Assembly: GCA_018303885.1 (NCBI GenBank)
Contig: JAGVXG010000009.1
Span: 27,611 to 91,610 of the forward strand
Reading direction: 5' to 3'
Length of the DNA: 64,000 bases
Source of the DNA: Candidatus Pacearchaeota archaeon
Lineage (GTDB): Archaea > Nanobdellota > Nanobdellia > Pacearchaeales > GW2011-AR1
Shown in pieces: positions 58,681 through 64,000 of this stretch. A program made the position numbers and the translations under genes. Position 1 is the first letter of the stretch; each line of letters begins with the position of its first letter. The notes beneath the pieces are model-generated. The model saw nothing but the letters and a program-made list of their open reading frames with translations, made no database searches and was not told the DNA's origin.

Positions 58681-58907
58681 AAAAAACGATGAGAAGCAAA
58701 ACCCAAAACTAAAAAACCAAAGCCAAAACGAAGAATTCGGGTCTAAAAACCAATTTTAAAATTAAGAATCCAGACTAAATAATCAAAAAACCAAGGTAAA
58801 ATTACCATAAAACAGACAAAAAAACAAGAAAAAACCACAACTTGTTGCCTGTGAAATCTATTTAATTTCACAGAAAAGTTTATATATTATTTTCTTTTAA
58901 GTTTTAC

Positions 58908-59168
58908 ATGGCTGGAGACAAAAACCCCTTTAGCGCGATTGTCGCGAAGATGATAGTCACAAAAGAGGGAAAAAGGCTTGGTTTTGTTCGAGACGTTACA
59001 TTTGAAACAAAATCAGGAGAACTAATAAGCATAGTGTTAAAAGATCCAACACCATATACAAAAAATCTTAACTTAGAAAGAACTTCTTCAAACGAGCTTC
59101 TTGTTCCATATAGCTCAATAATAGCCATAGGAGACTTTGTCATCGTCTCTGAAGAAGACCTAGTTTAA
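58908..59168 (+). CDS. PRC-barrel domain protein (86 aa)
   Basis: KMIVTKEGKRLGFVRDVTFETKSGELISIVL...LLVPYSSIIAIGDFVIVSE is a PRC-barrel pattern, as in 35031-35318. Confidence 0.6.
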   Translation: MAGDKNPFSAIVAKMIVTKEGKRLGFVRDVTFETKSGELISIVLKDPTPYTKNLNLERTSSNELLVPYSSIIAIGDFVIVSEEDLV

Positions 59169-59277
59169 TCAACCACTTCTTATCCCTTGTAATATATCTT
59201 AAATCTTACCCACCACAGTATACTTTAAAACAGATTTGAAGACAAATGTTTAAAAATACTTTTTATCATAGAGTAAT

Positions 59278-59685
59278 ATGAAAGTCATTGGTTTTAATTT
59301 TACTAAGTTGAGCGCAGAAAGGTTAAAAGAAACTGTAGAGGATATAAAAATCAACACAGAATTAGACTTCCCCGAAATCAAAGAAACAAAATCACCTTTC
59401 TTAAAGATTAAAGAGGAGCTCCTCGAAGCCAAGTTTGAATACAAAGTAAACTACGAGCCAGGCCTAGCAAAGGTTGTAATTCAGGGGAAGGTACTCTTTT
59501 CTGTCGACGAAAAAACAGCGAACGAAGTTCTTAAACAATGGAAGAAGAAAAACCTACCAGAAGATTTTAGAATACTTTTAGTTAATGTTGTCATGAGAAA
59601 GTCGGCCTTAAAGGCTTTAACACTTTGTGACGAGCTTAATCTTCCAGTTCATGTCCCTCTTCCCACACTAAGGAAAAATAAGTAA
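59278..59685 (+). CDS. hypothetical protein (135 aa)
   Basis: ATG-initiated ORF. No motif recognised. Confidence 0.45.
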   Translation: MKVIGFNFTKLSAERLKETVEDIKINTELDFPEIKETKSPFLKIKEELLEAKFEYKVNYEPGLAKVVIQGKVLFSVDEKTANEVLKQWKKKNLPEDFRILLVNVVMRKSALKALTLCDELNLPVHVPLPTLRKNK

Positions 59686-59751
59686 CAACGAATTAAAATT
59701 CAAGAAAAAACAAAGAAGAAGGTTAATAAAATCTAATTACCGATTCTTGCT

Positions 59752-60018
59752 ATGAAAATATCTTCAGAAAAGAGAGAGAAAATTTCAGAACAAATACTCG
59801 CGCTTCTTTATTCTGTTTCACCAAAGTCTATGTTTACATATGCCGTAGCCAAAGAGGCAGCAAGGGACGAAGAGTTTACTAAAGAAATTCTGCTAAGCCT
59901 AAAGAAAAAGAATTTAGTGCTAGAGATCAAAAAAAGCCCAAAAGGCAAACCCTATCTAAGAAGGTCTAGATGGGTGTTAAGCGACAAAACCTACAAAGCA
60001 TACCAAGACAACCAATAA
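59752..60018 (+). CDS. small winged-helix-like DNA-binding protein (88 aa), tentative
   Basis: ILALLYSVSPKSMFTYAVAKEAARDEEFTKEILLSLKKKNLVLEIKK fits a wHTH helix-turn-helix-wing layout. Confidence 0.4.
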   Translation: MKISSEKREKISEQILALLYSVSPKSMFTYAVAKEAARDEEFTKEILLSLKKKNLVLEIKKSPKGKPYLRRSRWVLSDKTYKAYQDNQ

Positions 60019-60117
60019 AGCCAGGAAAATCATCTTAAGAGCCCACAACCCTAAATAAGCCAGATATATGTCCTAGAACATCTTAAAGTTTTTATATTAC
60101 ATCCCCTTACATTTACA

Positions 60118-60957
60118 ATGGATCCGGTAAAAGAGGCATTTTCAAAAATTAAAAGAGAGATGGATTTTCTTAACAACGAAGTTAACTACATACGAAAAGA
60201 ACTCGTTCAAACAAGAGAAGAGTTAATTAAAATCTGTGAAATTATGATAAATCTCGATAAAAAAGTAGCAGAAATACCAAAAACCAAGGAAAAACCCAAC
60301 CCAACACACCTTTATCTGAATAAGACAACTCCAACACATAACCCAACACATGACTTACCCCTAGAGGCTCTAAAAAGCCTAAATAATGCATTTTCCAGTG
60401 GAAACGAAGGGGTTCCAACAGACAGACAGACAGACAGACAGACAGACAACAGCGAGAAAAAAATGCCCGCTTTAAGAGAAAATAACACACCAAAATCACT
60501 AAATTTTAACCAAAATATAAAGGAAACCCCCCTAAATTTTAATCAAAACGACAAAAATAACGAAAAAACAGAAAAAAACCAAGATTTTAGCCATTTAAGC
60601 CATTTAATTGAAAGCCCAATAGACCCGATAGATGGTGCGGCAAAGATCCTTGATTCGCTCGATAGCATAAAGAAAGAAATCAGGCTTAAATTCAAACGTT
60701 TAACTACACAAGAAATGCTGGTTTTTTCAACCCTTTATCAGCTAGAAGAAATGCCCGGCGACGTCGATTATAAGGTTCTTGCCAAAAGGCTCAATCTTAC
60801 AGAAAGCTCTGTTAGAGACTATATAGGAAGGCTCATAAAAAAAGGAATCCCCGTCGAGAAGAAAAGAGTAAACAACAAAACAATCCTCCTTTCCGTTTCC
60901 TCAAACCTCAAGAGAATAACATCCCTTTCCACAATTATACAACTAAGAGACCTCTGA
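60118..60957 (+). CDS. coiled-coil / repeat / C-terminal wHTH protein (279 aa)
   Basis: N-terminal coiled coil, TDRQTDRQTD repeat encoded by (ACAG)n, and a C-terminal LTTQEMLVFSTLYQLEE...YKVLAKRLNLTESSVRDYIGRLIKKGIPVEKKR wHTH. Confidence 0.55.
   Translation: MDPVKEAFSKIKREMDFLNNEVNYIRKELVQTREELIKICEIMINLDKKVAEIPKTKEKPNPTHLYLNKTTPTHNPTHDLPLEALKSLNNAFSSGNEGVPTDRQTDRQTDNSEKKMPALRENNTPKSLNFNQNIKETPLNFNQNDKNNEKTEKNQDFSHLSHLIESPIDPIDGAAKILDSLDSIKKEIRLKFKRLTTQEMLVFSTLYQLEEMPGDVDYKVLAKRLNLTESSVRDYIGRLIKKGIPVEKKRVNNKTILLSVSSNLKRITSLSTIIQLRDL
60418..60448 (+). repeat. (ACAG)7.75 tetranucleotide repeat inside a coding region
   Basis: acagacagacagacagacagacagacagaca read directly. In frame it is translated as (T)DRQTDRQTD. 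Confidence 0.9.
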
Positions 60958-62468: not shown

Positions 62469-62546
62469 GCCGCTCGCGAACTTTGGGCTTACGGAGAAAG
62501 GTTTATAATTACATTCCCCCTAACCTAAATAAGAAGGAGGTGTGAT

Positions 62547-62717
62547 ATGGCAAAATTAAGTGCTTGGCTTGTTACTTTGATTGGAGTTCTATGGCTTGTG
62601 GGCCCATTGGGAATGTCTTGGATTACTGGAGCTTGGGTTAGCATAGTCATAGGATTGGCCTTTTTGGTAATGGGTATAGGTAAGCTTATGAGAAACTACA
62701 GCGGAAAAAGAAGATAA
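62547..62717 (+). CDS. small 2-TM membrane protein (56 aa)
   Basis: Not in the ORF track. A strong SD (AAGGAGGTG) lies 5 nt upstream of the ATG. My translation: MAKLSAWLVTLIGVLWLVGPLGMSWITGAWVSIVIGLAFLVMGIGKLMRNYSGKRR. Confidence 0.55.
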   Translation: MAKLSAWLVTLIGVLWLVGPLGMSWITGAWVSIVIGLAFLVMGIGKLMRNYSGKRR

Positions 62718-62841
62718 ACCCCTATTTATTTAGATTTTAATTAATTTATTATTTATTAGTACCCTATTTCACTAAGTTAACCTAAGTGAACATGTTTTTA
62801 ATTACATAAAAGCTTAAATAATTTTGGCCCTTAGAGTTTAA

Positions 62842-62979
62842 ATGGCAACAATTATAACATTAAGCTCCGCAGTCATTTCAATCATATTTGGAATACTTGT
62901 GCTGGCTTTTCCAAGATTTCTAAGGTTTTTCGTAGGATTTTACTTCCTCATAATTGGAATTTTGATGTTTCTTGGATAA
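62842..62979 (+). CDS. small 2-TM membrane protein, DUF3096-like (45 aa)
   Basis: Not in the ORF track. My translation is MATIITLSSAVISIIFGILVLAFPRFLRFFVGFYFLIIGILMFLG. The pattern recalls DUF3096. Confidence 0.45.
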   Translation: MATIITLSSAVISIIFGILVLAFPRFLRFFVGFYFLIIGILMFLG

Positions 62980-63230
62980 TGCAAACAAAGCCCACCCAAA
63001 GAAACACCACACTATGGGCGGTTAACCAGAAATAAGACTTTTCCTCATAAAAACGAGATTTATGTGTAAAACCTTCTTCTAATGTAGACTATGCGAAGCG
63101 TTCAAAGACACTTTCAAGGTAAAATTTATATACTTAGGGCACCCTAAGTGAACGTGAACCAGCTTATTCAGACCCTAAGTTCACAAAAAGGAGGAAATAA
63201 ACAACTAAATTCTAGCTGTTAGTATTAAAA

Positions 63231-63782
63231 ATGAAGTACGCCATTTTCTATCGCCTAAAAGGCCAGGCACAGAAGACACATCAAAGACTTATAAAAACAA
63301 TTGGACCAAAGTTTGGAGAAAATTTTGTGGTTGAGCACCCAATACCACCTCATATAACATTAAAATATACTTTTCAAACAACTCAAATAAAAAAGACCGA
63401 AAAGGCAATCAAAGACTTTCTAAAAACCCAAAAACCACAAAAATTCAGAATAACAGGTTTTGGATATTTCAATAGACCAAAATATGATGTAATCTATCTC
63501 AAAGTCGTTTTTTCAAAACAAATACAAAAAATCAGACTAGGTCTTGTTGAACGAGTGAAGAGTGAAAAGGGCATAAAGGATCTACATCCGAGAAAATTTG
63601 ACAAAGACCCAAGACCCCATATAACAATTGTAAATCGAATTCACAAGAAGAATTTTAATAAAATATGGAATTATTTAAAGACACAGAAAAAACCACACTT
63701 TAATCTTAATTTTGATGCAATAGCACTTATGAAAAAGCCCAAAGACTACTGGTTGCTGTATAAGGAGTTCAAGATAAAATGA
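63231..63782 (+). CDS. 2H phosphoesterase-family protein (LigT-like), second copy in the window
   Basis: Two HxT motifs: PPHITLKYTF and RPHITIVNRI. Its stop overlaps the recombinase ATG (ATGA). Confidence 0.65.
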   Translation: MKYAIFYRLKGQAQKTHQRLIKTIGPKFGENFVVEHPIPPHITLKYTFQTTQIKKTEKAIKDFLKTQKPQKFRITGFGYFNRPKYDVIYLKVVFSKQIQKIRLGLVERVKSEKGIKDLHPRKFDKDPRPHITIVNRIHKKNFNKIWNYLKTQKKPHFNLNFDAIALMKKPKDYWLLYKEFKIK

Positions 63783-64000
63783 ATTCCGCAAAACCCCTAG
63801 CAGCAATTTATGTAAGAGTTTCGACTCAAGAGCAAGCACAGCAAGGATTCTCATTAAATGCCCAACAAGAAGCTTTAGAAAATTACGCTAAAGCCTTAGG
63901 TTACGAAATCCATAAAATTTATCGTGATGAAGGAAAGTCTGCAAAAGACCTGAAGAGACCGGAAATGACTAATCTTCTCCAAGATGCAGAAAAAGGAAAG
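63779..64000 (+). CDS. serine recombinase (resolvase/invertase catalytic domain), 5' partial, runs off the window
   Basis: My translation: MNSAKPLAAIYVRVSTQEQAQQGFSLNAQQEALENYAKALGYEIHKIYRDEGKSAKDLKRPEMTNLLQDAEKGK. This carries the canonical YxRVS(T/S)xxQ catalytic-Ser motif and the D.G.S(A/G)....RP block. Confidence 0.85.
   Translation, partial: MNSAKPLAAIYVRVSTQEQAQQGFSLNAQQEALENYAKALGYEIHKIYRDEGKSAKDLKRPEMTNLLQDAEKGK

Follow-up and report, generated by a model that had tools for sequence, protein, structure and literature searches.

A dif-bordered recombinase slot, held by XerA or by a serine recombinase, beside an origin-proximal gene cluster of Pacearchaeota

The stretch of DNA analyzed here, 64,000 nucleotides (nt) from a Candidatus Pacearchaeota archaeon (contig JAGVXG010000009.1; hereafter the window), has the base composition of a low-GC archaeon, about 34%, and its right end, beyond the orc1/cdc6 gene, closes with the first part of a serine recombinase gene. 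Our best explanation of this right end, to which we give a probability of roughly 0.6, is that a core gene cluster (58,908-63,088) is followed from position 63,089 by a recombinase slot, in which a module carrying the serine recombinase has replaced xerA and an HNH gene at dif, the recombination site of the Xer system. A more far-reaching proposal, which we put forward tentatively and at well short of even odds, is that the serine recombinase and a res-like palindrome ahead of it would replace XerA/dif in the resolution of chromosome dimers, in about 40% of the clade's species and in some members of the population from which the window comes, after a swap catalyzed by XerA at dif.

A preliminary description of this DNA had read the whole of 58.7-64 kb as one plasmid- or virus-derived island inserted beside oriC. 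For 58,690-63,088 that reading fails on the description's own terms, because the gene cluster is syntenic in 38 of 39 relatives and its composition is either ordinary or common to the relatives; at this locus, A+C-rich intergenic DNA and family-less genes beside an origin did not mean an island. The description was right in placing a variable region with a recombinase here, but the left border of that region lies 4.4 kb further right, at 63,089, and the variable DNA is a module swapped at dif rather than the remnant of a virus or plasmid.

Two alleles that part at a dif site

The boundary is defined by contigs of the window's own species. An exact lookup of the 279-amino-acid (aa) protein of the cluster returned 22 such contigs, all of them 98-100% identical to the window from orc1 to about 63,097; contigs with proteins identical to those of the window come from groundwater metagenomes. 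They fall into two alleles. One, consisting of a 2H phosphoesterase gene and the serine recombinase gene, is carried by the window, by L001 and L002, and by eleven further contigs (L093-L100 and L104 among them). The other, carried by L003, L008, L009, and L010, consists of xerA and an HNH gene, whose products are a tyrosine recombinase of 275 aa and an HNH protein of 171 aa. A single assembly, ERZ27254756, holds both alleles.

When L009, a contig with the xerA allele, is compared with the window, there are zero differences over 58,504-63,088; the first ones fall at 63,089, 63,092, and 63,093, after which homology is lost. The two alleles have the left arm and the spacer of a dif in common and diverge from the first base of the right arm, and the left border of the alleles is the edge between the spacer and the right arm of this 11-6-11 site. 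The alleles become homologous again, at 95%, precisely from the ATG of a gene for an 85-aa RelE-type toxin onward. The end of the window from 63,089 on, its last 0.9 kb, is part of a 1.4-kb strain-variable cassette carrying the 2H and recombinase genes. Right of the window the contigs differ again, in a hypervariable region rich in toxin-antitoxin genes; the genes right of the slot encode HepT, a nucleotidyltransferase, PD-(D/E)xK and Excalibur-domain proteins, and RadC.

A dif is defined by 11-nt inverted arms around a 6-nt spacer (PMC8371274, PMC2958812), and strand exchange by tyrosine recombinases takes place at the spacer ends (PMC8371274). The tyrosine recombinase of the alternative allele is identified as XerA by full-length matches to the XerA proteins of P. 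abyssi (PDB 4a8e, E = 1e-47) and T. acidophilum, and the protein from L003 passes the NCBIfam equivalog recomb_XerA_Arch (NF040815) with 244.7 bits against a cutoff of 220. In the 64-kb window, tblastn found no xerA at E < 0.01. Alignment of the DNA upstream of xerA in relatives brought out an 11-6-11 inverted repeat about 70 nt ahead of the ATG, and the order at xerA loci is dif, a TATA box, a predicted third XerA half-site, and the ATG.

These sites and their recombinases form two co-varying types. Type 1 dif reads ACTTCG(C/T)ACAA-N6-TTGT(G/A)CGAAC, type 2 dif reads TTC(G/T)(C/T)CTAA-N6-TTAG(G/A)CGAA (in L003, L204, and L205), and the two XerA subfamilies are 40-46% identical to each other. 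The window's dif is in register with the 11-6-11 sites that lie just ahead of xerA in relatives and is a hybrid, with a left arm of type 2 and a right arm that is type-1-like, scoring 10.1 bits on the type-1 arm matrix and ranking 7 of the 128,000 11-mers of the window; the resident right arm, in the xerA allele, is of type 2. The window's species uses type-2 dif, and a scan of the window with the type-1 dif matrix gave no full site above threshold. Blind clustering of 11-6-11 palindromes over all loci returned only a palindrome in the polD coding sequence and a repeat family of the 223-aa gene of the cluster, and it missed dif because at least 9 of 11 complementary positions were demanded. 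Scoring of conserved k-mers near xerA as a search for dif was swamped by A/T-rich low-complexity words.

At the right junction, the start of the toxin gene, ATGTACGAAAT (L001 1501-1511, L003 14349-14359), shares 9 of its 11 positions with a type-1 dif arm just where homology resumes; this likeness may be chance, because the partner arm is absent. The toxin scores 30.6 bits on TIGR02385 (cutoff 27.9), is RelE/YafQ-like, and is encoded at L001 1501-1758 and L093 1894-2124. No antitoxin gene was found upstream of it, where the neighboring gene differs between the alleles, and a 76-aa open reading frame (ORF) with only a weak DUF2250 match lies convergent to it and overlaps it at the 3' end.

Homing-endonuclease-like insertions seem to favor the 3' end of xerA. 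In L003 an HNH ORF (13832-14347) is inserted there, with the C-terminal tail of XerA duplicated (..KKVKSPLDRL and ..KKVKSPFEGL, each followed by the stop). Tails of this form (..EELKK[VI]KSP.D.L, then the stop) are present on the HNH ORF of L003 and also, in L013 and L036, on unrelated ORFs that closely follow the serine recombinase gene; positions of ORFs with the tail are L013 2776-3345, L036 around 2653, and L089 3933-3965. These relics of the XerA tail beside serine recombinases point to xerA as the older occupant of the slot.

Occupants of the slot and the element ahead of the serine recombinase

The same two states recur across the clade. Relatives were collected through Orc1, with one genome per species, 10 kb fetched on each side, and homologues of the block located by tblastn; the 80 closest species-level relatives have Orc1 identities of 76-91% and are metagenome-assembled genomes labelled Pacearchaeota, Nanoarchaeota, or Woesearchaeota. 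In the 35 species loci that reach 7 kb or more on the block side, the slot is held by xerA in 18, by the serine recombinase in 14, by neither in 3, and by both in none, mutual exclusion being judged within 10 kb. On an Orc1 tree the two states are interleaved and patchy, with sister species often differing. A metagenome search anchored on the recombinase itself gave 14 loci with an identity of 64% or more and 1.4 kb or more of upstream sequence, and in all 14 the 223-aa gene or the origin cluster precedes the recombinase; the enzyme forms a chromosomal family confined to this slot. In one distant genome xerA stands beside rps9-rpl13-rpl18e, the same cluster that follows the slot in L052 and in a P0142 contig.

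The state of dif differs with the occupant. A strict scan found the site in 15 of 19 xerA loci versus 1 of 27 serine-recombinase loci, and in most of the latter it is lost or degenerate. Immediately left of the recombinase promoter, dif is intact in L060, degenerate in L064, L106, L111, and L126, and present in the window.

The window contains 74 of the 249 codons of the recombinase, enough for a match to the Resolvase domain at E = 4e-16. The full-length protein matches Pfam Resolvase at E = 1.6e-45 and the Recombinase domain PF07508 with 29.7 bits (cutoff 21.1; E = 7.8e-7). Its catalytic domain matches the TP901-1 integrase (E = 5e-30), residues 162-247 match the recombinase domain of the A118 integrase, and the alignments cover positions 87-355 of the 651 of phrog_95 and positions 9-240 of the 542 of CcrB. 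There is no zinc-ribbon/coiled-coil domain, the protein ending at residue 249 (241-266 aa in the family), and no match to the HTH_7 domain of small resolvases, the C-terminal half being a Recombinase domain instead. By its domain content the enzyme is a large-serine-type catalytic domain and recombinase domain minus the zinc ribbon. Among the 120 closest of 2,740 homologues, all are 241-266 aa long, many lie on contigs of 100-690 kb, and R13, S15, and YKLDRFSRS (DRxxR) are at least 98% conserved. The uniform length of these 120 and their conserved catalytic residues rule out a truncated pseudogene.

Stand-alone proteins of about 130-165 aa that combine a zinc ribbon with a Recombinase domain and lack a catalytic domain are encoded at L052 2464-2958 (minus strand) and in many other relatives. 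They adjoin xerA or a full-length serine recombinase, share 40-65% identity with residues 139-249 of the enzyme encoded in the window, and may be DNA-binding derivatives recruited to another function.

What travels with the recombinase is a short palindromic element directly ahead of its operon, of the form TTTATATA-CTTAGGG(CA/TG)CCCTAA-n5-CGTGAAC-n14-CCCTAAGTTCAC, after which come a Shine-Dalgarno-like AAAGAGG and the first ATG (positions in the window are listed in Table 1). Of 28 serine-recombinase loci, 25 have it ahead of the recombinase operon, versus 0 of 19 xerA loci. In total, 44 loci carry it in 33 distinct sequences, with a central dinucleotide of CA in 21 and TG in 9. In the window the 18-bp palindrome is perfect. 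CTTAGGG and the distal CCCTAAG are always 41 nt apart, while the bases between them vary. The element is single-copy in the 64-kb window and in each locus (up to 21 kb), and no inverted partner of the palindrome was found within 10 kb at the loci or within the window. It is a candidate crossover or res-type site, a candidate operator, or both.

The gene right after the element is either the recombinase itself or a cargo gene that overlaps the recombinase start. In the window the cargo is the 2H phosphoesterase gene, with HxT motifs at residues 41 (HITL) and 130 (HITI) of its product. The preliminary description had reported it correctly as the second 2H gene of the window, the first lying at 39224-39745 on the minus strand, and as overlapping the recombinase by an ATGA, at 63779-63782, that joins its stop to the recombinase start. 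As cargo between the conserved element and the recombinase it occurs in the window's species only, with no homologue in the flanks of the 80 relatives; other species have unrelated ORFs of 233-273 aa at this position, or nothing.

The origin-proximal core cluster

Left of the slot, five genes (encoding the PRC-barrel, 135-aa, 88-aa, 279-aa, and 223-aa proteins) keep the same order and strands beside orc1/cdc6-polD in 38 of 39 loci from species-level relatives that extend 4.3 kb or more on the block side; in the single exception all five are present and one is inverted. Identities of the block proteins to their homologues in relatives are 40-93%, a range comparable to the 50-71% of the PolD small subunit. 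The region 58,908-63,088 is core chromosome, a vertically inherited origin-proximal cluster across a Pacearchaeota/Nanoarchaeota-like clade.

Table 1. Features of the window at and around the recombinase slot
Feature	Position	Strand	Remarks
PolD large subunit	48777-53507	minus
PolD small subunit	55169-56794	minus
orc1/cdc6	56814-58019	minus	Pfam AAA_16, Cdc6_lid, WHD_Cdc6; anchor of the synteny search
AT-rich intergenic region, origin-like, adjoining orc1	58020-58907		888 nt; includes CAAAACC repeats at 58697-58729
PRC-barrel protein, 86 aa, core	58908-59168	+	PF05239, 33.7 bits (cutoff 21.2)
135-aa protein, no family assigned, core	59278-59685	+	syntenic in 38/39 relatives
88-aa protein, possible winged helix, core	59752-60018	+	weak TrmB match, E = 0.087
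279-aa protein, repeat and C-terminal helix-turn-helix (HTH), core	60118-60957	+	(ACAG)9 at 60418-60452; HTH near Pfam threshold
223-aa protein, repeat and C-terminal HTH, core	61198-61869	minus	12-nt unit x3.8 at 61483-61528; HTH near Pfam threshold
Conserved CTAAGT-core box, ..CTAAGnnnnACCTAAGTG(C/A)AC, also written (T/G)AACTAAGnnnAACCTAAGTGCACA	62043-62066 and 62770-62793		ahead of two tiny membrane-protein genes
DUF5654 tiny membrane protein	62151-62468	+	Pfam
56-aa tiny membrane protein	62547-62717	+	AAGGAGGTG at 62534-62542 ahead of ATG 62547
DUF3096 tiny membrane protein	62842-62979	+	Pfam
Left context of dif, conserved anchor	63059-63071	+	TTTATGTGTAAAA
dif	63072-63099	+	left arm CCTTCTTCTAA 63072-63082; spacer TGTAGA 63083-63088; right arm CTATGCGAAGC 63089-63099
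Conserved element	63125-63184	+	TATA box TTTATATA 63125-63132; palindrome ACTTAGGG-CA-CCCTAAGT 63132-63149
Accessory repeats of the element	63148-63159 and 63173-63184	+	GTGAAC twice 63148-63159; distal CCCTAAGTTCAC 63173-63184
2H phosphoesterase, 183 aa	63231-63782	+	Pfam 2_5_RNA_ligase2 PF13563, 72.5 bits (cutoff 27)
Serine recombinase, first 74 of 249 codons	63779-64000	+	remainder from identical contigs L001, L093

The block genes listed in the preliminary description were all found where it had placed them, and the PRC-barrel gene, which its list lacked, is added here. The PRC-barrel protein, whose nearest solved structure is also a PRC-barrel (PDB 8qzo, E = 1e-6), has homologues of 70-93% identity at the same position in relatives. 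The 135-aa protein gave zero matches in Pfam, NCBIfam, PHROG, or PDB. The 88-aa protein, syntenic in relatives at 52-73% identity, had been called a small winged-helix protein; it is present, and the sole evidence for its HTH is the TrmB match. The 279-aa protein is identical on 22 contigs and has syntenic homologues of 39-61% identity, and homologues of the 223-aa protein are 56-86% identical. The genes for these last two are convergent, and their products had been described as sharing one architecture, which holds only for the layout of a repeat followed by a near-threshold C-terminal HTH. BLASTP finds no similarity between them (E > 2) and so lends no support to their being paralogues.

Both genes contain short repeats. 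The (ACAG)9 tract encodes TDRQ repeats within the 279-aa ORF, and a change in copy number would shift the frame; 22 of 22 contigs encode the same protein. In the 223-aa gene the 12-nt repeat TGTTTGAACACC is in frame and encodes GVQT repeats, and strain differences in its copy number give products of 203, 207, or 223 aa. Members of the same motif family, AAACAGCCTGTTT and AAACACCTGTTTGG, lie upstream of the gene (61975-62010) and are kept in at least nine relatives; the family may represent a binding site common to the promoter and coding region of the 223-aa gene.

Between the 223-aa gene and dif lie three tiny membrane-protein genes common to both alleles of the window's species, one of them preceded, as had been noted, by a strong Shine-Dalgarno sequence. 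Relatives have one to three such genes after the 223-aa gene, and because the set varies by species, the region resembles an array of small cassettes. The CTAAGT-core boxes ahead of these genes occur in xerA loci and serine-recombinase loci alike.

The composition of the block does not mark it as foreign. Its bulk GC (0.33-0.36) is that of the rest of the window, and the GC, GC3, and codon-usage likelihood of its genes lie within about 2 standard deviations of the 53 genes to the left, the exception being raised C at third positions. Tetranucleotide distance gives z = 1.6-2.6 and is no smaller at 26-31 kb, where z = 2-3. The shift proposed in the preliminary description survives between the genes, where C is 0.20 versus 0.124 elsewhere in the window (Mann-Whitney p = 0.0004) with G unchanged, and GC is 0.32 versus 0.255 (p = 0.008). 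The accompanying statement that intergenic DNA elsewhere is A/T-only was too strong, since intergenic GC left of the block ranges over 0.03-0.44. Third-position C is raised in the plus-strand genes of the block and lowered in the minus-strand gene, and the coding-strand GC skew of the block genes is below that of orc1-polD in 50 of 51 relatives. Conserved to this extent, the A+C-rich bias is a property of the locus and not a mark of foreign DNA.

Hallmarks of an integrated element were equally missing. Direct and inverted repeats of the att type, which the island reading led one to expect, were sought around the cassette and at its borders and came only as short pairs at chance level. A tRNA scan found none near the block (the nearest at 9.7 kb), and Rfam gave no family near it. 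Collections of plasmid and phage DNA had no match to the block, and none of its nine non-recombinase proteins matched PHROG, the serine recombinase being the sole match. IMG/VR returned generic recombinases only, at 30-39% identity, and no relative of the 279-aa protein. At the left end, the proposed island border had fallen on the CAAAACC repeats of the origin-like region, where same-species contigs are 98-100% identical; there is no island boundary at 58020-58907.

Several observations concern the origin side of the window. Cumulative GC skew falls steadily over 1-64000, with no inversion at the orc1-adjacent AT-rich region at 58.0-58.9 kb, and it is unusual in its own right for a dif to lie as little as about 5 kb from the presumed origin. 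The PolD large subunit has 1576 aa in the window versus 1620 aa in other same-species contigs (L004, L005), and the 1620-aa versions carry Pfam intein splicing and LAGLIDADG matches. In relatives, the coding region for the N terminus of this subunit contains a 28-nt 11-6-11 palindrome, AAGTTGCAAAA-CAGAAA-TTTTGCAAGTT, conserved at the DNA level in 14 species (for example, L034 13151, L039 14058, and L101 797).

Function of the serine module and relation to known systems

These observations can be joined into a course of events. The serine module would arrive on DNA of a related lineage, already to the right of a dif, as in L060. The left crossover would be a XerA strand exchange inside the dif spacer, and the right one, homologous or illegitimate, would fall at the start of the toxin gene and remove xerA and the HNH gene. 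Once in place, a recombinase dimer would bind the palindrome through its recombinase domains. Because the enzyme has no zinc ribbon, it should be able to read only motifs of the inner att type, for which an 18-bp palindrome with an asymmetric central dinucleotide is the expected site, and the accessory repeats at fixed spacing would recall those of res sites. Autoregulation is predicted from the location of the palindrome, which follows the TATA box and precedes the expected transcription start, and the recombinase would act at the element as an autoregulated resolvase. A substitute for Xer/dif is the simplest function to propose because the site is single, has no inverted or att partner, and stands with an enzyme that is confined to the slot and under purifying selection, while dif decays. 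That the serine recombinase resolves chromosome dimers is nevertheless a possibility that we hold loosely, drawn as it is from sequence comparison.

Several points weigh against this proposal or parts of it. The sequences left of the break are identical for 4.6 kb, so that parsimony alone puts the crossover at or left of 63,088. The right junction has a lone half-site, ATGTACGAAAT, and therefore does not demonstrate a purely Xer-mediated exchange of cassettes. L060 and the window keep a good dif despite their serine recombinase. The mutual exclusion of the recombinases covers the flanks of the locus, and xerA with a functional dif might lie elsewhere in serine-recombinase genomes. The palindrome, placed as it is between TATA box and expected transcription start, could be a mere operator of a regulator of the locus, and since the CTAAGT core also occurs in the boxes of the tiny genes in both kinds of loci, such a regulator may be what reads it. 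Pairwise identities of the recombinase correlate with those of Orc1 and PolD at a rho of about 0.06, a figure too weak to separate vertical from horizontal inheritance because correlation between core genes is itself low, only 0.1-0.6 (about 0.5).

The main rival, which we consider unlikely if clearly the most serious of the alternatives, is a selfish dif module that enters through the host's XerA recombination at dif, displaces xerA by chance, and has no function for the host, its recombinase serving only the module's own maintenance, excision, or spread. A left junction exactly at the edge of dif spacer and right arm is what such a module would leave, as is a cassette that starts with a dif right arm of the non-resident type. 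The patchy distribution on the host tree, the varying cargo, the toxin-antitoxin genes and hypervariable region to the right, and recombinase identities that in some pairs exceed those of PolD (85% versus 59% for L069 versus L064) all agree with mobility, and the Xer-site-flanked modules of Acinetobacter are a published analogue (PMC12907356). A selfish module would, however, be hard pressed to explain why the recombinase, in all 14 loci, sits in this slot and nowhere else, with neither a second dif nor a second palindrome at the right end. Once xerA has been displaced, movement driven by Xer is no longer possible; the decay of dif after the swap also speaks against this rival, and a conserved family with intact catalytic residues in about 40% of species indicates a selected function. 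Improbable to a further degree is a local invertase or cassette shuffler that works on the CTAAGT boxes and serves phase variation or cassette turnover, unrelated to chromosome resolution. The boxes and the element do share the CTAAGT core, the slot borders the array, and the set of small membrane-protein genes varies by species, but the boxes are equally present in xerA loci that have no serine recombinase. Boxes and element all point one way, no inverted partner of the palindrome lies within 10 kb or in the 64-kb window, and same-species contigs are collinear across the array.

A plasmid or virus island covering 58,690-64,000 and beyond, integrated beside oriC by the serine recombinase, has become highly improbable. 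The C-richer intergenic DNA, the mildly raised tetranucleotide z, the many family-less genes, and a recombinase at the end of the block speak for it. The conserved synteny, with identities similar to those of PolD and Orc1, speaks against it, as do the strand bias common to the relatives, the ordinary bulk GC and codon use, and the empty searches for att repeats, tRNA genes, and viral or plasmid homologues; in same-species contigs, 98-100% identical over 58.0-63.09 kb, the sole break falls at 63,089. That the two alleles are an artefact of assembly or binning, chimeric contigs of mixed strains, is barely credible. Contigs with the serine-recombinase allele, the window's own excepted, are no longer than 3 kb, and breaks of this kind are typical of strain heterogeneity; yet the alleles were recovered independently in many assemblies and projects (at least 11 contigs for the serine allele and at least 4 for xerA) with constant junctions, and the same two states occur in dozens of separate species genomes.

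The locus offers a natural experiment, in which dif with xerA and a serine recombinase with its palindrome alternate between sister species and within one population. If the proposed function is true, a serine recombinase would for the first time be known to underlie chromosome resolution, a core task of chromosome maintenance would have passed to a non-orthologous enzyme, and an Xer system would have mediated its own replacement. A minimal large-serine-type recombinase of about 250 aa with an 18-bp palindromic site would also be a possibly attractive compact tool for genome engineering. Independent of function, a dif lies about 5 kb from an archaeal origin-like region, XerA and dif co-vary in two types, and a swap junction at the strand-exchange position of dif makes Xer-mediated module exchange in archaea directly testable.

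To our knowledge, all known chromosome-dimer resolution systems use Xer-family tyrosine recombinases (XerCD, XerS, XerH, and XerA), and we know of no Xer system that has been replaced by a serine recombinase. Reviews of dimer resolution describe Xer-family systems only (PMC5357621, PMC8371274), archaeal serine recombinases have been called "never fully investigated" (PMC8371274), and the literature searched yielded no published description of this recombinase slot. Single-recombinase Xer systems with dif beside the gene include XerS/difSL of streptococci and lactococci, XerH/difH of epsilon-proteobacteria, and XerA of Sulfolobales with a predicted dif close by (PMC2958812, PMC5357621). The xerA allele and the 18 species that carry xerA fit this arrangement of one recombinase gene with an 11-6-11 site immediately upstream, but the module here lies about 5 kb from the orc1-adjacent origin-like region, and the window strain has a serine recombinase with a different site instead. 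A cassette border at the dif strand-exchange position and hybrid arms are shared with Xer-dependent mobile modules, among them elements that use the host's Xer enzymes to integrate at dif, and the dif-site-flanked modules of Acinetobacter plasmids and chromosomes (PMC12907356). Compared with such modules, the cassette here has one full dif only, brings its own unrelated recombinase, and removes the xerA that its movement would need.

Serine resolvase/res modules (Tn3, gamma-delta TnpR-res, Sin-resH, and beta recombinase-six) resolve replicon multimers, and small serine resolvases and invertases have a C-terminal HTH_7 domain and a total length of about 180-200 aa. The window's module is like them in having the gene directly after a candidate site, which overlaps the promoter of that gene and in which a palindromic subsite of the crossover type is joined by accessory repeats at a fixed distance. 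It is unlike them in that the enzyme has a Recombinase domain instead of the small HTH_7, the locus is chromosomal and outside any transposon or plasmid, and the activity and the roles of the subsites are putative. In the large serine recombinases, of about 450-700 aa (the TP901-1, A118, and phiC31 integrases and the cassette chromosome recombinases CcrA, CcrB, and CcrC), the zinc ribbon and coiled coil recognize the outer att motifs and govern synapsis and directionality. The window's enzyme matches the TP901-1 integrase in its catalytic domain, and the A118 integrase and the first roughly 240 positions of the CcrB profile in its recombinase domain, but stops at 249 aa, with no attL/attR pair and no association with a phage or mobile element. 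The locus combines two known kinds of system, Xer/dif and resolvase/res modules, at the edge of a block that is itself ordinary core DNA.

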